A DNA stretch of 44,540 nt from Escherichia phage vB_EcoS-phiEc4. The first letter of the stretch is position 1. Each line of letters starts with the position of its first letter. The notes under the pieces were generated by a model, which was given only the letters and a program-made list of their open reading frames with translations, was not told where the DNA came from and searched no databases. The stretch is taken from the sequence record MZ576218. One strand, written 5' to 3'. The position numbers and the translations under genes are program-made. Positions 2,782 through 41,899 of the stretch are shown here, one piece after another.

Positions 2782-3858
2782 ATGCTATTAACTTTAGCGC
2801 CACAGGGTTTATCTATGAGCTTACTTACATCCCTAATCAGCCATCAGATATGGCTGCAACGCACCGCATCCGGTGAGGTGAAAGACCTCACGCCGTTCAT
2901 TCAGGAGATAAGGGATGAAATCAAACGGCAGGTGCTGTTATTCGGTGACGACGGTCGCAGCACTGCGCGACTGAATAAACTGTTACGCGACCTGGAAGAA
3001 GCACTAACCGGTATTACGGGTGACTGGCAAACAAAGCTAACAGACGACCTTAAGGAACTGGCGGCGTACGAGGCTGAGTGGAACGTAAAGACACTGACCG
3101 CCAACGTAGACGCGGAATTTGTTACGCCTACCGCTGAGCAGGTATGGGCCGCTGCCGAGTTTCAACCATTATCATTGAGCGACAAGCCCGTTGATTTCAC
3201 CAAGCTGATGTCTGGATGGGGCGAAACGGAAGTAGCACGTCTTGTAACTGGAGTTAAGATGGGCTTTGTGCAAGGTCAAACCACACGGCAGATTGTTAAG
3301 AATGTTGTTGGCGCTGGTGGACTAGCCGACATCTCAGAACGTAACGCGGCTACGGTAATCCGCACCGCGCTGTCCCACGTATCCAACGAGGCCCGTAACG
3401 AGACGTACCGCCAGAACGACAACATCATCGAGAAGTACGAGTGGGTGTCAACGCTTGACAGCCGCACCAGTACGATTTGCAGGGTCAGAGACGGGATGAC
3501 GTGGGAAATTGGTAAGGGGCCGATGCCCCCAGCCCATCCGAACTGCCGGTCGTGCACGGCTCCGGTAATCAGTTCCGAGTTCGACTTCCTCGATAAAGGC
3601 GCAAAACGCGCGGCTAAAGGCGCGGAAGGTGGCACTCAGGTAAGCGCAGACACCACTTACTACGAGTTCCTTAAACAACAACCGGCGTGGTTTCAGGACC
3701 AGGCGCTCGGCCCGGTGCGAGGTAAGATTTTCCGTAACAGCGGTATATCGCCGGAAGAGTTTCGCGTAATATCTGTAGATGGTTTCGGGAATCCGCTCAC
3801 GCTTAAGCAGATGGCGGAACTCGATAAACGTGTTGCTGATTATCTGAAAGGGGAATAA
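2782..3858 (+). CDS. head morphogenesis protein (Mu F / SPP1 gp7-like minor head protein)
   Basis: 358 aa following portal; C-terminal Cys/His-rich region typical of the F-like family. Confidence 0.6.
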   Translation: MLLTLAPQGLSMSLLTSLISHQIWLQRTASGEVKDLTPFIQEIRDEIKRQVLLFGDDGRSTARLNKLLRDLEEALTGITGDWQTKLTDDLKELAAYEAEWNVKTLTANVDAEFVTPTAEQVWAAAEFQPLSLSDKPVDFTKLMSGWGETEVARLVTGVKMGFVQGQTTRQIVKNVVGAGGLADISERNAATVIRTALSHVSNEARNETYRQNDNIIEKYEWVSTLDSRTSTICRVRDGMTWEIGKGPMPPAHPNCRSCTAPVISSEFDFLDKGAKRAAKGAEGGTQVSADTTYYEFLKQQPAWFQDQALGPVRGKIFRNSGISPEEFRVISVDGFGNPLTLKQMAELDKRVADYLKGE

Positions 3859-4319: not shown

Positions 4320-4340
4320 TAAAAAGCCGGAATGATAAAA

Positions 4341-4368
4341 AGCCCCGCTATGGGGCTTTATTTTTATA
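4341..4368. terminator. bidirectional rho-independent terminator
   Basis: AGCCCC-GCTAT-GGGGCT hairpin flanked by A-run upstream and TTTATTTTTAT downstream; sits between convergent genes 3858..4319(+) and 4432..4776(-). Confidence 0.7.
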
Positions 4369-4431: not shown

Positions 4432-4776
4432 TCATTTGCATTTCTCGTCGTATGTTTGTTGTAACTGCGACAGACGATTACCGGCTGTCATCTCGTCCAT
4501 AGAAGGCCCGGCGCCCGTGTCCATAAAGAACAGCGGAACAATCAGGAATGCGCCTGTAACACCGAGTACAACGTTAGTACCTATTTGCTTATTAACACGG
4601 TGCGTAGCGTTGGCTTGAGCTTGTTTTGTCGCGGCGATTCTCGATAGTAACTGATTACATGTTGCCGTTGTATCCCCCGCCTGATAAACCTGTAAAGCTG
4701 GGTCTGGCAACGACCTTACGCAACCACTCAAACAAACGGCTACAACACCTGCTACTGCTAATTTAATATATTTCAT
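4432..4776 (-). CDS. lipoprotein with C-terminal hydrophobic segment (superinfection-exclusion candidate)
   Basis: 114 aa; signal peptide with lipobox LSGC (MKYIKLAVAGVVAVCLSGC); own promoter upstream; antisense to structural genes. Confidence 0.6.
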   Translation of the reverse strand: MKYIKLAVAGVVAVCLSGCVRSLPDPALQVYQAGDTTATCNQLLSRIAATKQAQANATHRVNKQIGTNVVLGVTGAFLIVPLFFMDTGAGPSMDEMTAGNRLSQLQQTYDEKCK

Positions 4777-4874
4777 AGTTCACCATTACCTGTATCAATG
4801 TCACCGATACCACTACAAGCCCAAATAAACATCGCCACATCAACTGCAATTACTACTGAAATAACGACTAACAT
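4773..4874 (-). CDS. 33-aa hydrophobic micro-protein (MLVVISVVIAVDVAMFIWACSGIGDIDTGNGEL)
   Basis: not in ORF track (<60 aa); strong RBS GAGGAGG 5 nt upstream of ATG; stop overlaps start of lipoprotein gene (ATGA coupling). Confidence 0.35.
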   Translation of the reverse strand: MLVVISVVIAVDVAMFIWACSGIGDIDTGNGEL

Positions 4875-4901
4875 GACGGCCTCCTCGGTTCGATAGAATG
4901 A

Positions 4902-4930
4902 ATAGTACCCTATTATATTGGGGTGTGCAA
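4902..4930 (-). promoter_or_regulatory. sigma70-like promoter P_A copy 1 (TTGCAC-17-TACTAT) with AATAG-N4-CTATT palindrome
   Basis: reverse complement reads TTGCACACCCCAATATAATAGGGTACTAT; 29-bp block recurs at 14137..14165, 37896..37924, 39119..39147. Confidence 0.6.
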
Positions 4931-4982
4931 ACTATTTATTTACGTATTCCAGTTATTCCACCGAATTGTAAATGTTGGAATA

Positions 4983-4998
4983 AACTATTCGAATAGTT
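4983..4998. repeat. 16-bp perfect palindrome AACTATTCGAATAGTT overlapping -35 of P_C1
   Basis: self-complementary as read; half-sites CTATT/AATAG are those of the promoter palindrome family but in opposite arrangement. Confidence 0.5.
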
Positions 4999-5025
4999 GA
5001 CTTTTCACTAAAAATATGATAAGCT
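4997..5025 (+). promoter_or_regulatory. promoter P_C copy 1 (TTGACT-17-TGaTAAGCT, extended -10)
   Basis: same -35, 17-bp spacing and TGn-TAAGCT as 37587..37615. Confidence 0.55.
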
Positions 5026-5031
5026 CCACCT

Positions 5032-5234
5032 GAGCTTGTGAAGTATGAACAAGCGACCGCGGCGCGGGCAGGTAACGGAGCGGGACGTAAGTCCTGAGTG
5101 TAGTTACGCTGACGCGTTCGGAAGGGCCATACTCTATTGCTTGTGTAAAAAGTAACAGGTTTACTTAGATTACGCCGTTTCTATGTTTAAATGATAAGGA
5201 CTAGCGCCCTGCTTTAAGGCAGGGCTTTACTTAT
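5032..5234 (+). ncRNA. promoter-proximal structured RNA element, copy 1 (candidate antitermination leader or sRNA)
   Basis: ~105-nt core homologous to 37621..37725 with compensatory changes in two helices; ends at terminator-like hairpin 5206..5234. Confidence 0.5.
5206..5234 (+). terminator. hairpin GCCCTGC-TTTAAG-GCAGGGC followed by TTTACTTAT
   Basis: 7-bp GC-rich stem and U-rich tail, 15 nt upstream of Rz start. Confidence 0.5.
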
Positions 5235-5249
5235 CGAGAAAGGGGAAAC

Positions 5250-5636
5250 ATGAATCTTAAAGCAACCGTCGTAGCAGGAGCATGTTTCATCATCCTGGCT
5301 TACACACACGGCATTTATCAGTACCGCAGCGGCTGGCACGAAGGCCGCGCTAATCTCGTTTCGCAGCAACAGCAGAAAGCACAGGCCGAGTTAGCGAAGA
5401 AAACACAACGGCAGCAGCAGGATGAATCAAAGGCCGCCGCCGCTGACAACGAAGGCAAGACGAAATCAGAGGTGATCACCCGTGAAGTCGTTAAGTACAT
5501 TAAAACTCCTGGTCGCAGCGTGTGCACTTTCGACCCTGAGCGCGTGCAGCTCAAGTCCCGCGCCGTCGCAAACGCCAATTCCATCCCCGGATACGACGAT
5601 GATGCAGCCGCCGTGCAAGCTGGCACCGCCGAGTAG
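5250..5636 (+). CDS. i-spanin (Rz-like)
   Basis: 128 aa; N-terminal TM segment, Gln/Lys-rich charged periplasmic region; contains +1-frame lipoprotein ORF. Confidence 0.6.
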   Translation: MNLKATVVAGACFIILAYTHGIYQYRSGWHEGRANLVSQQQQKAQAELAKKTQRQQQDESKAAAADNEGKTKSEVITREVVKYIKTPGRSVCTFDPERVQLKSRAVANANSIPGYDDDAAAVQAGTAE

Positions 5637-5745
5637 CGACGCTGACGAGGATTTAGCTATCGACGTTCAGAACGCTGAATGCGTACGGCAGCTGCGGCTG
5701 AAAGTGTTCATGTTGCAGGATTACGTGAGGAATATTCTGGAATAG
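5482..5745 (+). CDS. o-spanin (Rz1-like lipoprotein), overlapped architecture
   Basis: 87 aa in +1 frame relative to Rz; signal peptide with lipobox LSAC; Pro-rich mature region. Confidence 0.6.
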   Translation: MKSLSTLKLLVAACALSTLSACSSSPAPSQTPIPSPDTTMMQPPCKLAPPSSDADEDLAIDVQNAECVRQLRLKVFMLQDYVRNILE

Positions 5746-5827
5746 TTGCCTTGCATGTTGGAATAATTTATTCTTGACATGTAAATCCGGGTGGCCCGGG
5801 TTCCAACGTCCAGGGGACATACTGACT

Positions 5828-6532
5828 ATGAATCGTTTTTTACGTTATCCGTTCCAGGAAGAAGCTGGGGCAGAAGATAAAGCTGGTGGCGGTGACGCGC
5901 CGAAAATGTTCACCGCTGAAGAAGTTCAGGCGCTGATTGAGAAAGAAGTTGCCGGGCTTAAGGCTAATCAGGAAGCATTGTTGGCGGAGAAGAAAGAAGC
6001 CGCTCGCAAAGCAAAAGAGGCCGAAGAAGAACGGCAGCGCGCGCACCAGGAGGCGTTAAAAGCCGCTGGTAAGATGGATGAGTTCGAAAAGACGATTCGT
6101 AGCCAGTATGACCCGGTGTTAGCCGAGAAAGACGGTCGCATCTCCAGAATGGCAGAGCGTATCCTCGGCAGCGAACGTAAAGCGGTGCTAGGCTCTTTCG
6201 CGGGTGACTTTATTACCCCAGAAGCAGTGGACATTCTTGCGCCGTTCGTTAAGACTGAGTTCGAAGGCGATGATGTGGTTACTAAGTTTGTTGGTGCAGA
6301 CGGTAACGTAATCACGACTGACCCGGAACAGTTCCGCAAATACTTGCGAGAACACAAAGCGTTTTCACATTTGATTAAAGCAAATGCAGCTTCCGGCGGC
6401 GGGGCTTCCGGTAGCAAAGGCGGCGGGGCCGCACCAGCGTTTAAAGACATGAGTGAAGCGGAGCGTATCGCTCTGTACGAATCGAACCCTGCCGAATTTG
6501 AACGGCAACTTAAAGCCCTGAGGAAAAAATAA
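5828..6532 (+). CDS. scaffolding protein
   Basis: track ORF 5774..6532, first ATG at 5828; coiled-coil-like charged sequence (EAL/KEA repeats), immediately upstream of major capsid gene. Confidence 0.6.
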   Translation: MNRFLRYPFQEEAGAEDKAGGGDAPKMFTAEEVQALIEKEVAGLKANQEALLAEKKEAARKAKEAEEERQRAHQEALKAAGKMDEFEKTIRSQYDPVLAEKDGRISRMAERILGSERKAVLGSFAGDFITPEAVDILAPFVKTEFEGDDVVTKFVGADGNVITTDPEQFRKYLREHKAFSHLIKANAASGGGASGSKGGGAAPAFKDMSEAERIALYESNPAEFERQLKALRKK

Positions 6533-7581
6533 TGGCAATTACTACTATCGGCGACATCGTAACTGGTAAAGAATCGGTAATCCTGTCCTACATGACAGAG
6601 GACCCGGTAGAGAAAACCGCGTTCTTCCAGTCCGGTATCCTTACCTCGACTCCGTATGCCGCCGCTATCGCAAACGGCCCGTCCAACAAAGCGGTCCTGC
6701 CGTACTGGAAAGCTATTGATACCTCTATCGAGCCGAACTACTCGAACGACGTATATCAGGACGTCGCCACCCCGCGTAACGTGCAAACCGGTGAGATGGA
6801 TGTTCGCGTAGCTTACCTGAACGAAGGTTTTGGTCAGGCTGACCTGACGGTAGAACTGACCAGCCAGAATCCGCTGCAATCCGTGGCTTCCCGTCTGGAT
6901 AACTTCTGGCAGCGTCAGGCACAACGCCGTCTTATTGCTACCGCGCTCGGTCTGTACAATGATAACGTAGCGGCTACCGATGCGTACCACGAGCAGAACG
7001 ACATGGTTATTGACGTGTCCGCTACTCTGGGCTTCGACTCCGGCGCGTTCATCGATGCTACCCAGACTATGGGCGATGCGCTGATGGGTAACGGTGGTGA
7101 AGTGCTTGGCGCTATCGCGATGCACAGCTTCGTTTATGCGCAGGCGCGTAAGCAGCAGCTTATCGACTTCATTCGCGACGCTGACAACAACACCATGTTC
7201 GCCACCTACCAGGGCTATCGTGTGATTGTTGACGACAGCATGACCGTAGTCGGAACTGGCAACAGCCGTAAGTTCATCTCCATCATCTTCGGCAACGGTG
7301 CTATCGGTTACGGTGAAGGTTCTCCGTCCAACCCGCTGGAATACGAGCGCGAAGCGTCCCGCGGCAACGGCGGCGGCGTTGAAACCCTGTGGACCCGTAA
7401 GACCTGGTTACTACATCCGTTTGGTTACAGCTTCACCAGTGCAGTAATCACTGGCAACGGCACCGAGACTACCCCGCGCTCTGCTTCCTGGCAGGACCTG
7501 GCGAACGCCTCCAACTGGAACCGTGTGGTTGACCGCAAGCACGTACCGATTGCCTTCCTGGTAACTGGTGTCGGTGCTTAA
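6532..7581 (+). CDS. major capsid protein
   Basis: 349 aa after scaffold; followed by strong terminator; position and size typical of HK97-fold capsid protein. Confidence 0.8.
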   Translation: MAITTIGDIVTGKESVILSYMTEDPVEKTAFFQSGILTSTPYAAAIANGPSNKAVLPYWKAIDTSIEPNYSNDVYQDVATPRNVQTGEMDVRVAYLNEGFGQADLTVELTSQNPLQSVASRLDNFWQRQAQRRLIATALGLYNDNVAATDAYHEQNDMVIDVSATLGFDSGAFIDATQTMGDALMGNGGEVLGAIAMHSFVYAQARKQQLIDFIRDADNNTMFATYQGYRVIVDDSMTVVGTGNSRKFISIIFGNGAIGYGEGSPSNPLEYEREASRGNGGGVETLWTRKTWLLHPFGYSFTSAVITGNGTETTPRSASWQDLANASNWNRVVDRKHVPIAFLVTGVGA

Positions 7582-8020: not shown

Positions 8021-8200
8021 ATGGCAGATAATTATGTAATCCGCGAAAAGTACACCCACGTTGATATTGTAGACGGTCAGGTGATGCCTGTTCGCGGTGT
8101 GGTAGAAGCGGATGAACTGGTTGCGACTCAACCGGACAACGAAGAAGCGCACAACAACGGCGGTGGTGCTAAGCGTCGTCGCCGTAAATCAGAGGAATAA
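8021..8200 (+). CDS. 59-aa protein with basic C-terminus (GAKRRRRKSEE)
   Basis: not in ORF track; RBS AGGAAAGG 3 nt upstream of ATG; fills gap between decoration and adaptor genes. Confidence 0.4.
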   Translation: MADNYVIREKYTHVDIVDGQVMPVRGVVEADELVATQPDNEEAHNNGGGAKRRRRKSEE

Positions 8201-12737: not shown

Positions 12738-13864
12738 CCCAGCATCTCCGGTGAAATAGTTAAACGTGCGACCTCGCCATATTCGGCGCTATAAGTAATT
12801 ACATTTGCACTGCGGCCCGACATCCATCCGCCGCGAGAGGCGTAGGCGTCTTTAGCCGCTAAGGTGCGGTGTTGCTCAACAATCATGTTACGGCTTTCTA
12901 CAATCTTCTGGTGGTGCAGATGGCCTACGTGGGCGTAGCTGTAAACACTCTCGCCGAACGCTTTACGGAACTTGGCAATCATAACCGGTTCGATAGCGTC
13001 GAATCGTGCTTTATGCCCGTGATGGAAGAACAGCGTCGTTTTGCCGTGTTGCACCATCTTGTAAACATCCGGCGACGTATCGACGAATACACGAGGCTCG
13101 TTGTCGTACAGTGTGCTGAACATCTCCGCCAGCCAAATCATCCCGGATTCGTCGTGGTTCCCCTGAACTATAAGCAAGCGAACAGTTTTATGCTTAACCA
13201 GAGCCATATCAACAACACGGCGGACCATGCGAATCATGTAGCGGACAAGTTTCTGGTAACGCGTGTCGGCGTCAAGGACATGACCACTCGCCGGTGTAAC
13301 GGCGTCAAGACTATCGAAGTGAGCTAAGTCGCCAAGAAGATTAATAACCCCCGTACCTGCATCCGGTGCTTTCTGAAACGCAGCATCAAACCAACGAGAG
13401 AATAAGTCCTCCGCGATTTTCATATCCCAGTCGTCGCCGCTCTCGTCAGCCCAGGCTAACATACCGAGATGGAAATCAGATACCGTGTAAAGATTGAGTA
13501 GTTTATCGTCACGTTTGGCTCGTGCCGGTTTAACAGGCGCAACGGGCGTAATCTCTGACTTCATGCCCTCTATTACGGCTTTCATCAATTCAACCTGACG
13601 TTCGGCATCAGCGTCGGTCTTAACCCATTGCAACTTAGTGTTGCCGAACTCGTCCACCAGGGACGACGTTCCTTTAATCTTGTAACCGTCTGGTACAAGG
13701 TGACTAACGTCGCGCCCGTGGCCTACGCCTTTCTTAGCCAGCTTCGCTTTACGGATTCGGATAACGCGGTCTGAGATTCCGTATTTACGGGCGATATCGA
13801 TATTCTTCATCCCGGCGTTCAATTCTTCCTGTAATTGCTCGTCGGTTATTTTCTTCTGGGCCAT
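12734..13864 (-). CDS. HTH domain fused to calcineurin-like metallophosphoesterase (SbcD/Mre11-like motifs)
   Basis: track ORF 12734..13969; likely start ATG 13864 with RBS GAGGAAG; motifs SDFHLG, GDLAHFD, GNHDE, HHGH, GHLHH; N-terminal basic HTH-like segment. Confidence 0.65.
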   Translation of the reverse strand: MAQKKITDEQLQEELNAGMKNIDIARKYGISDRVIRIRKAKLAKKGVGHGRDVSHLVPDGYKIKGTSSLVDEFGNTKLQWVKTDADAERQVELMKAVIEGMKSEITPVAPVKPARAKRDDKLLNLYTVSDFHLGMLAWADESGDDWDMKIAEDLFSRWFDAAFQKAPDAGTGVINLLGDLAHFDSLDAVTPASGHVLDADTRYQKLVRYMIRMVRRVVDMALVKHKTVRLLIVQGNHDESGMIWLAEMFSTLYDNEPRVFVDTSPDVYKMVQHGKTTLFFHHGHKARFDAIEPVMIAKFRKAFGESVYSYAHVGHLHHQKIVESRNMIVEQHRTLAAKDAYASRGGWMSGRSANVITYSAEYGEVARLTISPEMLG

Positions 13865-14094: not shown

Positions 14095-14136
14095 AACATA
14101 ACTCCTGATTTGAGATAACATCGTTGGTGTAAGTGA

Positions 14137-14165
14137 ATAGTACGCTATTATATTGGGGGGTGCAA
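14137..14165 (-). promoter_or_regulatory. promoter P_A copy 2 (TTGCAC-17-TACTAT) with AATAG-TACG-CTATT palindrome
   Basis: near-identical to 4902..4930; drives the minus-strand Imm/phosphoesterase/phosphatase/kinase operon. Confidence 0.6.
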
Positions 14166-14272
14166 GTAGTGTGCTAGAATAATTTTGCGCCTAGTGTCGC
14201 ACACGAAAAGCGGGTGGTTCCCGTCTGGCGCATTTCCTTTAACCAGTAACCTCTTAACCAAAGGATTAAAGA

Positions 14273-37586: not shown

Positions 37587-37615
37587 TTGACTTTTACTTG
37601 AAAATATGCTAAGCT
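37587..37615 (+). promoter_or_regulatory. promoter P_C copy 2 (TTGACT-17-TGcTAAGCT, extended -10)
   Basis: same architecture as 4997..5025. Confidence 0.55.
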
Positions 37616-37620
37616 TCACT

Positions 37621-37858
37621 GAGCTTGTGAGATATCGCAAGCGACCGCGGAGCGGCAGGGAACGCAACGCGTGCCATTAGGCACTTGAGTGTAGTTCCGC
37701 TGACGCTTTCGGAAGGGTCAAAGTCTATTGTTAATCCCGCCTAAATATCCAAGTCACGGATAATTAAAAGTTTCTATAGTTGCCGTGAGCAAGGTAGAGA
37801 GTACTTCACTCCGCTGGGGTGGGCTAACGCCCACCCACTGCGTTGCGTACTCTTTTAA
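37621..37858 (+). ncRNA. promoter-proximal structured RNA element, copy 2
   Basis: core 37621..37725 homologous to 5032..5135 with compensatory substitutions; 3' region has GC-rich hairpin GGGTGGGC-TAAC-GCCCACCC nested in AGAGTAC/GTACTCT helix followed by TTTT. Confidence 0.5.
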
Positions 37859-37895
37859 GAAACGAAAGAATCACAGCGGCAACGTAACTATTCTC

Positions 37896-37924
37896 TTGCA
37901 CACCCCAACATAATAGGATACTAT
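37896..37924 (+). promoter_or_regulatory. promoter P_A copy 3 (TTGCAC-17-TACTAT) with AATAG-GATA-CTATT palindrome
   Basis: TTGCACACCCCAACATAATAGGATACTAT; followed by leader GAGACAGAGGAG and gene 37959. Confidence 0.6.
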
Positions 37925-37958
37925 TCACTTATCGAAACGAGACAGAGGAGTGAGGGTT

Positions 37959-39118: not shown

Positions 39119-39147
39119 TTGCACACTAAGATAGAATAGGCTACTAT
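39119..39147 (+). promoter_or_regulatory. promoter P_A copy 4 (TTGCAC-17-TACTAT) with AATAG-GCTA-CTATT palindrome
   Basis: TTGCACACTAAGATAGAATAGGCTACTAT; followed by leader GAGAGACAGAGG as in copy 3. Confidence 0.6.
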
Positions 39148-39178
39148 TCATTTACACAAACTAGAGGAGAGACAGAGG

Positions 39179-40862: not shown

Positions 40863-41171
40863 TTGGATAAATTTACTGAAACAGTGACAGGCTGGCTTCT
40901 CGCTGCCGCGCTAGCCGGAGGGGTAATCGGACTACGACAACATAAGTCTGTTATTTCTGGCCCCATCGACGGATTCTGCTTTATCGCAACCGGCTTCACT
41001 TGCGCTGTATTCGGCGCGCCTCTTGCCGCTCAATGGTTCGGTATTACCGGAGAGCGCGAGATAGCTGGCCTCGGATTCATCATCGCAATTCTCTGGATGC
41101 CCATCTATTCCCGTCTCTCCGGTATCGTCTCTGGAGAATACATCGCTCGTCGAGGAGGCACAGATGAATGA
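40863..41171 (+). CDS. holin (three predicted TM segments)
   Basis: 102 aa, TTG start; hydrophobic segments and charged C-terminus; immediately upstream of endolysin. Confidence 0.6.
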   Translation: MDKFTETVTGWLLAAALAGGVIGLRQHKSVISGPIDGFCFIATGFTCAVFGAPLAAQWFGITGEREIAGLGFIIAILWMPIYSRLSGIVSGEYIARRGGTDE

Positions 41172-41436
41172 GTTATTCTGGTTCGGCGGTATGCTGGCAA
41201 TCGGAGGCACATCGCTGTTTAATGTATATCACCCCAGCGTGGATGACGGATTATTTGGCCGGGTGCTCTATATCCTGACTGCCATCGTCTGTGCTGCCGG
41301 ATGTATCCACCTGTTACAGGGCAGCATGTCACCAACGCTGCCTGAGACGTTAATCACATTAGTTGCGCTGCGTCAGATTCGCCAGGTGTGGCTGTCATAC
41401 GGAGGACATAAGCGTGTCTCGAAATATTTCAGATAA
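41164..41436 (+). CDS. second lysis membrane protein (holin or antiholin-like)
   Basis: 90 aa with two hydrophobic segments between holin and endolysin. Confidence 0.45.
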   Translation: MNELFWFGGMLAIGGTSLFNVYHPSVDDGLFGRVLYILTAIVCAAGCIHLLQGSMSPTLPETLITLVALRQIRQVWLSYGGHKRVSKYFR

Positions 41437-41899
41437 TGGATTGCATTTTACCGCCGCGTTCGAGGGATTCCGAGGAACTGCGTATCGCGCTACACCGAAT
41501 GAGAAGTACCTGACTATTGGGTATGGAAGCTATGGCCCGCATGTTAAGGCGGGGCAGACCATCACTCCAGGACAAGGCCTCCTGTTACTTAATCGCGATA
41601 TGGCTAAAGCCGTAGCTGCGGTTGATGCGGCAGCGCACCATTCACTGACACAGGCACAGTTCGACGCTGTGTGTGACCTGGTCTACAACGCAGGCGCTGG
41701 CGTGATTGCCGCTACCACGGGCACAGGTAAGGCGCTGCGTTCTGGTGACATCGAGACGCTGCGGGCTAAGCTGACACTGTTCATCAACCAGAACGGCAGA
41801 CCACTACTCGGCCTGCGTCGCCGTACAGCAGGTCGTCTGGCGCTGTTTGACGGTAAACCGTGGCAAGAGGCGGAGGCAATTGGGAGGGCTGTTAGATGA
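41414..41899 (+). CDS. endolysin, phage lysozyme (GH24-like)
   Basis: track ORF 41363..41899; likely GTG start 41414 with RBS GGAGG; motif FEGFRGTAY...TIGYG typical of T4-type lysozymes. Confidence 0.8.
   Translation: MSRNISDNGLHFTAAFEGFRGTAYRATPNEKYLTIGYGSYGPHVKAGQTITPGQGLLLLNRDMAKAVAAVDAAAHHSLTQAQFDAVCDLVYNAGAGVIAATTGTGKALRSGDIETLRAKLTLFINQNGRPLLGLRRRTAGRLALFDGKPWQEAEAIGRAVR

Follow-up and report, generated by a model that had tools for sequence, protein, structure and literature searches.

In the genome of Escherichia phage vB_EcoS-phiEc4 (sequence record MZ576218), analyzed here as one window of 44,540 nucleotides (nt), positions 5,250 to 5,745 hold two overlapping genes that read in the same direction as the head scaffolding gene behind them. 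The first encodes a protein with the features of an inner-membrane spanin subunit (i-spanin) and the second a small lipoprotein with those of its outer-membrane partner (o-spanin). A promoter, a structured RNA and a terminator-like hairpin precede the pair, and a promoter-like site lies between it and the scaffold gene (Table 1). The o-spanin start is offset by 232 nt from the i-spanin start, which places it in the +1 frame; the two genes share 155 nt (5482-5636), and the o-spanin gene runs 109 nt past the i-spanin stop. This is the architecture of the "overlapped" class of spanin genes. A preliminary description of the same DNA had recognized an Rz-like and an Rz1-like open reading frame (ORF) in this position, between accessory genes and the scaffold gene, and the flanking ORFs that we find on either side agree with it. 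We consider it very probable that the pair is the two-component spanin of a Kagunavirus, belonging to the described "Jersey" family of overlapped i-/o-spanins, and that it is expressed in the way proposed below.

The i-spanin gene is preceded by the Shine-Dalgarno sequence AAGGGG at 5240-5245, and its product matches PHROG 2536, annotated "Rz-like spanin", with E=1e-56. The strongest hydrophobic 19-mer of the protein comprises residues 5-23, which score 1.59 on the Kyte-Doolittle scale over the 19 residues and 2.86 over an 11-residue core, and only Lys4 precedes the stretch. A single N-terminal transmembrane segment is predicted, with the bulk of the protein in the periplasm. The periplasmic part is rich in Gln and Ala, and 30 of its 104 residues are charged. 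In an AlphaFold model made from the single sequence, residues 3-64 form one continuous helix with predicted local distance difference test (pLDDT) values of 74-88, and the C-terminal third is of low confidence; this fits the published secondary-structure description of the family. The coordinates, the N-terminal anchor and the charged domain that had been proposed for the Rz-like ORF all held.

The o-spanin gene opens with GTG behind AGAGGTGATCA, an almost perfect Shine-Dalgarno sequence, and the motif upstream of the start is kept in related loci as GAGGTGAT, GAGGTAAT or GGAGGCTAT. Its product matches PHROG 1267, another "Rz-like spanin" family, with E=3e-20 over residues 9-86. The N-terminus, MKSLSTLK-LLVAACALSTLSA-C22-S, consists of a basic start, a hydrophobic stretch and a lipobox with Ser at the +2 position. 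Among relatives the lipobox reads LSAC, LASC, LTSC, LSGC or LNGC and the +2 position is occupied by Ser, Gln, Asn or Arg but in no case by Asp. The protein carries a predicted signal for signal peptidase II with a lipobox Cys and lacks the Asp retention residue. The mature protein would be a small proline-rich lipoprotein of 66 residues, with nine prolines that all fall within the first 30. Its single-sequence AlphaFold model comprises a signal helix (residues 4-21), a disordered linker (22-53) and a confident helix (54-86). The LSAC lipobox, the proline richness and the +1 frame had each been noted for the Rz1-like ORF and are confirmed here, with the lipobox Cys at residue 22.

For comparison, 48 related loci were fetched from IMG/VR, 42 of which are colinear with the window and yield 40 distinct sequences. 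Both reading frames are conserved across this set, and the +1 frame is open in all 48. Because a start codon occupies the same position across the colinear loci (GTG in 40 and ATG in two, of Jerseyvirus type), the start site of the o-spanin can be regarded as fixed. Each of the 40 distinct sequences has a Cys at the lipobox position, at residue 22 or 23. Invariant in the same 40 sequences are Cys92 of the i-spanin and Cys45 and Cys67 of the o-spanin, so that both subunits have a conserved, presumably periplasmic Cys that would be available for intermolecular disulfides. In the part of the DNA that encodes only the i-spanin, nucleotide diversity is 0.107, 0.083 and 0.233 at codon positions 1, 2 and 3, respectively; in the part that encodes only the o-spanin (5637-5745, 109 nt) it is 0.085, 0.033 and 0.244, and this is the best-conserved segment of all, with 93% amino acid identity. 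Such third-position bias in both unshared parts is the signature expected of purifying selection on each protein. Within the overlap, the variable sites lie at third positions of i-frame codons, and these serve as second positions in the o-frame. The pattern indicates that the i-spanin is the constrained partner there and that the signal peptide and linker of the o-spanin absorb the changes, a division of constraint in shared DNA that has also been described for lambda Rz/Rz1 (PMC5295617). We take both ORFs to be real genes and not a chance pair. A genome-wide scan returned no other lipoprotein ORF overlapping a membrane-protein gene and no other spanin candidate. One relative from IMG/VR (locus L038, 2501-3089) departs from the common arrangement, having a shorter i-spanin of 118 amino acids, an o-spanin with an unrelated signal peptide (lipobox ITG-C) and little gene overlap; it is reminiscent of FSL SP-031, a "separated" variant treated by Kongari et al., and still stands behind the same RNA module.

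The family to which the pair belongs was defined by Kongari et al. in 2018 (BMC Bioinformatics 19:326; PMC6139136) as the "Jersey" overlapped spanins, with 27 members that include Jersey, SETP3, K1G, K1H and K1ind1-3. Its traits are a 155-bp overlap, two o-spanin helices and constant Cys45 and Cys67 (PMC6139136), and the present pair combines the same overlap and the same two cysteines with sequence relatedness to phages on that list: over all 87 residues, the o-spanin shares 89.7% identity with its K1ind3 counterpart (GU196281), the upstream region has 95.4% DNA identity to K1G (GU196277), and the spanin region has 95-99% DNA identity to Kagunavirus records. More widely, positions 4900-5900 share 99.4% identity with Escherichia phage vB_EcoS-phiEc3 and match 330 phage records, nearly all of them Guernseyvirinae (Kagunavirus and Jerseyvirus) from Escherichia or Salmonella. 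With an o-spanin of 87 amino acids and an i-spanin of 128 that has a membrane anchor and helices, nothing of substance separates the pair from the rest of the family, and it is best seen as an isolate-level variant, for example in having LSA-C where many relatives have LAS-C. The Pfam and NCBIfam models gave no significant match, and the family is therefore assigned from PHROGs, close homologs and the published classification.

Compared with lambda Rz/Rz1, the pair has the same division into an inner-membrane subunit with a helical periplasmic domain and a small proline-rich outer-membrane lipoprotein in the +1 frame, the same availability of periplasmic cysteines for disulfide-linked dimers, and the same noncoincidence of the constrained parts of the two proteins in shared DNA. 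It differs in having no detectable sequence similarity to Rz/Rz1, in being overlapped instead of fully embedded, in the long C-terminal helix of the o-spanin and in not adjoining the holin and endolysin genes. By analogy with lambda, the N-terminal helix of the i-spanin would anchor in the inner membrane and its long helical domain would extend into the periplasm, and the o-spanin would be processed at Cys22 and, as the Ser at +2 does not act to retain it, continue to the outer membrane. The conserved C-terminal helix of the o-spanin would bind the i-spanin to form a periplasm-spanning complex that the cell wall keeps inactive. After destruction of the wall by the holin and endolysin, the complex would fuse or disrupt the outer membrane.

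Related spanins are also found in Dhillonvirus (TheodorHerzl, SSL-2009a and HK578), the second subfamily of the Jersey family, in which the C-terminal part of the o-spanin is homologous at about 48-50% identity. Their spanin genes occupy the same site in the head-gene cluster, between the head-morphogenesis and scaffold genes. In TheodorHerzl (locus L172, 4203-4644) the i-spanin start overlaps the end of the head-morphogenesis gene, and there is no separate promoter, structured RNA or hairpin; the spanins are followed by a reverse-strand accessory gene and then the scaffold gene. This comparison suggests that location of the spanins in the head cluster is ancestral and older than Guernseyvirinae, and that the promoter, RNA and hairpin were acquired in Guernseyvirinae.

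The preliminary description placed the pair some 35 kilobases from a holin-endolysin cassette at 40863..41899. Two holin-like genes and a lysozyme-type endolysin gene are indeed present there, and the distance holds in window coordinates. On the circular genome it does not. The window starts with the large terminase gene and ends inside the small one, and joining its end to its start restores the ATGA stop/start overlap of terS and terL, which is internal in the record of phage Schulenberg; the order of genes throughout is that of the phiEc3 record. The window is therefore a complete circularly permuted Kagunavirus genome that has been cut arbitrarily inside the terS/terL overlap. Circular permutation is expected because packaging is by headful, as reported for the Kagunavirus Schulenberg (PMC6763661). 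By the short way round the circle, from the endolysin stop at 41899 through terS and terL to the spanin start at 5250, the distance is 7,890 nt on the same strand, and the separation of 35 kilobases is an artefact of linearization. In the Jerseyvirus "dunkel", which is linearized differently, the lysozyme gene ends at 3635 and the spanins start at 12792. Separation of the spanins from the holin and endolysin was reported for Schulenberg (PMC6763661), and an unlinked spanin pair is the standard layout of the subfamily.

Such unlinked positions are familiar from other phages: the genes for T7 gp18.5/18.7 and T4 PseT.3/PseT.2 lie at a distance from the endolysin gene, in the company of packaging or other late genes. 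The pair described here is like these in being unlinked from the holin-endolysin cassette, and linkage is not needed for function. It is unlike them in sequence, to which it is unrelated, in its position between head decoration/accessory genes and the scaffold gene, and in having its own promoter and leader. In the lambda paradigm, it is the intact wall of the cell, and not when the proteins are made, that keeps spanin complexes inactive. Because their activity is gated by the wall in this way, the spanin genes need not sit in the lysis cassette.

Table 1. Coordinates of the spanin unit, its control elements and other lysis and flanking genes in the window
Feature	Position	Strand	Details
Bidirectional terminator closing the upstream head operon	4339..4359	both	Terminator scan; annotated on both strands in Schulenberg
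Accessory ORFs	4432..4874	-	Flank the spanin unit
Predicted sigma-70-type promoter of the RNA/spanin unit	4997..5025	+	-35 TTGACT 4997-5002; 17-nt spacer; TG 5017-5018; -10 TAAGCT 5020-5025
Structured RNA core, copy 1	5025..5144	+	Covariance model, 139 bits; 5' part of the ~200-nt spanin leader
GC-rich, terminator-like hairpin	5206..5234	+	Stem 5206-5225, then TTTACTTAT; terminator scan
i-spanin	5250..5636	+	ATG; 128 amino acids; N-terminal transmembrane helix, long charged periplasmic helix
o-spanin Shine-Dalgarno sequence	5468..5478	+	AGAGGTGATCA; ends 3 nt before GTG; GAGG core 8 nt upstream
o-spanin	5482..5745	+	GTG; 87 amino acids; +1 frame; signal peptide, lipobox LSA-C22, proline-rich linker, C-terminal helix
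Promoter-like site before scaffold	5746..5774	+	TTGCCT 5746-5751; 17 nt; TATTCT 5769-5774
Head scaffolding gene	5828..6532	+	PHROG 206, E=4e-54; first gene after the spanins
Holin	40863..41171	+	PHROGs 2359, 2508 and 7/33703 across the lysis cassette; phiEc3 and Schulenberg annotations concur
Second holin or antiholin	41164..41436	+	Same PHROG set as the rest of the lysis cassette
Soluble lysozyme-type endolysin	about 41414..41899	+	Same PHROG set as the rest of the lysis cassette

The DNA ahead of the spanins is strongly conserved. A stretch of 250 nt that leads up to the i-spanin gene, with its promoter, RNA core and hairpin, is retained in every one of the 46 loci whose sequence reaches back that far, and the promoter geometry is retained both in these loci and in a second copy of the module elsewhere in the window. 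The predicted promoter reads TTGACT-17-TGaTAAGCT here and T(A/T)GACT-17-TGtTACGCT in Jersey-type relatives, with a start site inferred at about 5032; its -10 hexamer matches at only three of six positions, and a consensus promoter scan omitted the site. The RNA core has compensatory changes in its stem pairs, such as C:G to U:A in 10 of 20 sequences. A covariance model based on 20 sequences places copies at 5025-5144 and 37614-37735 of the window, finds two in Schulenberg and detects only the spanin-proximal one in Jerseyvirus "dunkel". The two modules of the window (4997-5234 and 37587-37860) are 79% identical over their first 143 nt, which in copy 2 lie at 37587-37730, with compensatory changes between the copies. 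In Kagunavirus, copy 2 stands with its promoter and a downstream hairpin at the head of the early/lysis/packaging gene block. About 165 of 186 phage records carry the module at 95-99% identity, and the adjacent spanin protein is less conserved, at 63-74% identity in Jersey-type loci.

Rfam scans at gathering and at permissive thresholds gave nothing at the position of the RNA, and a search of 5,426 E. coli genomes gave no match, on which ground a host origin was rejected. In IMG/VR, the loose pattern ACCGCGG-N40-70-TTCGGAAGG retrieved loci of which 22 among the first 100 were real by the covariance model, all 22 on Guernseyvirinae contigs, the rest being due to chance. A trans-acting seed search within the phage genome for targets of the conserved single-stranded AGAUUACGCCGU gave no convincing site. 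RNAalifold proposed a long-range pairing between the 5' end of the RNA and sequence downstream of the hairpin, close to the ribosome-binding site of the spanins; we did not adopt it, as it is backed by a single between-clade difference and competes with local hairpins. An ORF of 36 amino acids (5045..5155, + strand), carried as a "hypothetical protein" in Bas75 and Schulenberg, lies wholly inside the structured RNA and has no counterpart in copy 2 or in Jersey-type relatives; because it is not conserved there, it is probably a spurious gene call.

The hairpin that follows the RNA is present in the same 46 loci, with compensatory changes at two stem positions: the stems GCCCTGC, GCCCCGC, GCCCGGC and GCCCGAC each occur with the matching complement. 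Its folding energy is -14.6 kcal/mol here and ranges from -14.6 to -15.8 across the forms. The tail is UUUACUUAU in the window and UUAGCGUAU in Jersey-type relatives, making for a U-tract that is weak and not conserved, with almost none left in the Jersey-type relatives. Approximated with a d'Aubenton-Carafa-type formula, the d-score of the hairpin in the window comes to about +5; the form common in Kagunavirus reaches +14 and the Jersey type -3, and by such scoring we regard the hairpin as a marginal candidate terminator. The authors of the Schulenberg genome report the use of TransTermHP (PMC6763661), and that record has the upstream terminator annotated and none at the spanin hairpin. The ATG at 5250 sits 24 nt after the stem and 15 nt after the T-rich tail, the latter being the distance given in the preliminary description, and there is no room for a promoter in between.

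From this arrangement, transcription would begin at the promoter at 4997-5025 and run through some 200 nt of structured leader, with the spanin pair as the first coding unit. Termination at the hairpin is probably only partial, which would give a modest level of spanin. The preliminary description went further and made expression of the spanins, and perhaps of the late structural genes, depend on readthrough of the hairpin. For the spanins this is plausible, because there is no space for a promoter between hairpin and ATG and because the upstream operon ends at a stronger terminator, at 4339-4359, whose d-score by the same formula is +19 (core stem with T-run) and which is predicted to insulate the spanin unit from transcription running from terL through the Hoc-like gene. 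The late structural genes as a whole probably do not share this dependence, because a conserved promoter-like site lies directly before the scaffold gene. In the 82-nt spacer that contains it, the two hexamers and their spacing are invariant in all 19 distinct intergenic sequences, from both genera, and the bases between them vary. This second promoter, with a predicted start near 5781, would raise transcription of the scaffold and capsid genes, the products of which are required in much greater numbers. A palindrome, GAATA-N3-TATTC, occurs as two perfect copies, one just upstream of the -35 element of the RNA promoter (4978-4990) and the other overlapping the -10 element of the scaffold promoter (5761-5773, GAATA-ATT-TATTC). 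Its half-sites are kept in both genera, the central bases differing at the first site, and it may be the binding site of a regulator; a third occurrence, at 8195, was dismissed as ribosome-binding-site context. The transcriptome paper on phage K1B4 never mentions spanin, holin or scaffold genes and gives no expression data for the locus.

The alternative that survives best assigns the hairpin the part of an efficient terminator. The RNA of about 200 nt would then act mainly as a stand-alone or cis regulator, and the spanins, perhaps with the whole late operon, would need active antitermination. Either the nascent structured RNA could make RNA polymerase resistant to termination, like the put RNAs of HK022, or a phage factor could act at the conserved promoter-proximal region, like lambda Q at PR'-6S RNA-tR'. 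In lambda, PR'-6S RNA-tR' precedes S, R, Rz and Rz1, and the present layout has in common with lambda and HK022 a constitutive-looking promoter, a noncoding transcript of about 200 nt and a terminator-like hairpin before lysis or structural genes, a functional analogy only; the two RNA copies per genome, each just downstream of a promoter, are also reminiscent of HK022 putL/putR, in layout only. Much of what was described above would suit such a device: an RNA that is conserved beyond the neighboring spanin protein, compensatory changes in its stems, its invariable position directly upstream of the spanins in Guernseyvirinae, a second copy with promoter and hairpin at the head of another gene block, and the lack of space for another promoter before the ATG. 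However, an efficient terminator is hard to reconcile with a U-tract that is weak and not conserved, being TTAGCGTAT in the Jersey type with its negative terminator score, or with the Schulenberg record, which has no terminator here although TransTermHP was run. Copy 2 has an early promoter of its own behind it and is missing from Jerseyvirus "dunkel", and because of this the RNA cannot be a universal device at operon heads. Furthermore, no Q-like or other antiterminator protein was identified, and the RNA shows no sequence or Rfam relationship to the known elements. We therefore consider obligatory antitermination quite unlikely and favor partial readthrough of a leaky hairpin into the spanin genes.

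Two further alternatives concern the proteins themselves. In phiEc3, Bas75 and the curated Schulenberg record, the o-spanin is annotated from an internal ATG as a product of 47-48 amino acids (MMQPPCK or MQPPCK) that has neither signal peptide nor lipobox; the short form corresponds to 5599-5745 in the window and to 5280-5423, 5839-5982 and 6882-7028 in the records L002, L001 and L171, respectively. In the "dunkel" record the gene is not annotated at all. Were this short product, starting at ATG 5599 or 5602, the real one, the second gene would encode neither a lipoprotein nor a classical o-spanin. Apart from the annotations, the proposal can draw on PHROG 5672, a 47-residue profile of the short form that matches with E=4e-30. 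It fails to explain why the 40 codons upstream are open in every one of the 48 loci and always encode a positive N-terminus and a hydrophobic stretch, together with a Cys at residue 22 or 23, or why the start at 5482 is GTG or ATG at a constant position behind GAGGTGAT. The Cys45/Cys67 numbering and the 155-bp overlap given by Kongari et al. fit the 87-residue form, and a soluble cytoplasmic 47-mer could not reach the periplasm. We regard the short form as very improbable. The 87-residue, GTG-initiated o-spanin is a better gene model than those in most GenBank records, which, judged from sequence comparison, systematically mis-annotate the protein at 47-48 amino acids or omit it.

Several points weigh against our interpretation of the pair as a spanin. 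Judged by its hydropathy peak, the i-spanin helix is a borderline membrane span. Neither AlphaFold model was built from an alignment, and overall confidence is low, with a mean pLDDT of 61-62. Scans of both proteins against Pfam and NCBIfam gave sub-threshold matches only (DUF2514, E=0.009; P2 Rz1/LysC, E=0.07), and the literature gave no report of an experimental test for any member of this spanin family. The spanin function of the pair is assigned from architecture and by analogy with lambda, and the transcription model, including both promoters and the RNA 3' end, is predicted throughout. These database and literature results, together with the position of the pair between head genes in both Guernseyvirinae and Dhillonvirus, could be read in favor of a role other than lysis, such as head assembly or superinfection exclusion by the 128-residue membrane protein with the +1 ORF kept only by overlap constraint, but we give this almost no credence, given that the 109 nt encoding only the o-spanin lie outside the i-spanin gene and are nevertheless the best conserved, with variation at third positions, that a membrane anchor and a lipoprotein in an overlapped +1 frame are the defining signature of spanins, and that a phage with holins and a soluble endolysin and no other spanin candidate would otherwise be left without an outer-membrane step.

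Between the Hoc-like gene and the RNA module is an accessory slot that contains, in the window, genes for a 114-residue lipoprotein (4432..4776, - strand; lipobox LSG-C19, with an internal hydrophobic segment) and a 33-residue membrane peptide; elsewhere the slot carries a sliding-clamp-like gene (Schulenberg), a methyltransferase gene ("dunkel") or a small ORF (phiEc3). The lipoprotein matches PHROG 13472, of unknown function, and may be a superinfection-exclusion gene. It was considered as a unimolecular spanin and rejected, since its hydrophobic segment is internal and its periplasmic part comprises only about 46 residues; in addition, its transcription is from the opposite strand by an early promoter, and close relatives lack it. 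Four copies of a 31-nt repeat with the sequence of a good sigma-70 promoter (TTGCAC-17-TACTAT) lie at 4900-4930 (-), 14135-14165 (-), 37896-37926 (+) and 39119-39149 (+), and the copy at 4900-4930, directed leftward, would drive the reverse-strand accessory genes beside the spanin unit. Farther downstream, an Rfam match to int-alpA RNA at 14184-14248 (+) scores 36.6 bits against a gathering score of 35.8. It lies directly 3' of a promoter-like sequence, TTGGGG-16-TGcTAGAAT (both within 14153-14248), and just before the tail-assembly operon (ATG 14274), making it a second case in this genome of a promoter and structured leader at the head of a late operon.

As a spanin finding, the result is right but unremarkable and in itself matters little, since the gene pair, its family and its position away from the other lysis genes had all been published before. 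The corrected gene model has a practical consequence, in that lysis genes picked from current annotations of therapeutic Kagunavirus or Jerseyvirus phages would give a nonfunctional construct. The part of the locus that deserves its own study is the adjacent RNA module. With the spanins standing behind a strongly conserved, uncharacterized structured RNA and a marginal terminator, the locus offers a convenient site for probing the role of that RNA. We think it unlikely, though worth stating, that the structured leader and hairpin form a regulatory device instead of a passive 5' untranslated region, whether through put-like antitermination, as a factor-dependent attenuator or as an abundant small RNA. 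If a put-like or attenuator RNA were at work, it would control the entry of polymerase into the spanin and late structural operon; if the product were an abundant phage small RNA, leakage through the terminator would set the dosage of spanin. In either case, the element would represent a new class of phage RNA, absent from Rfam, essentially restricted to Guernseyvirinae and present in two copies in Kagunavirus, with the spanins as its first downstream target.

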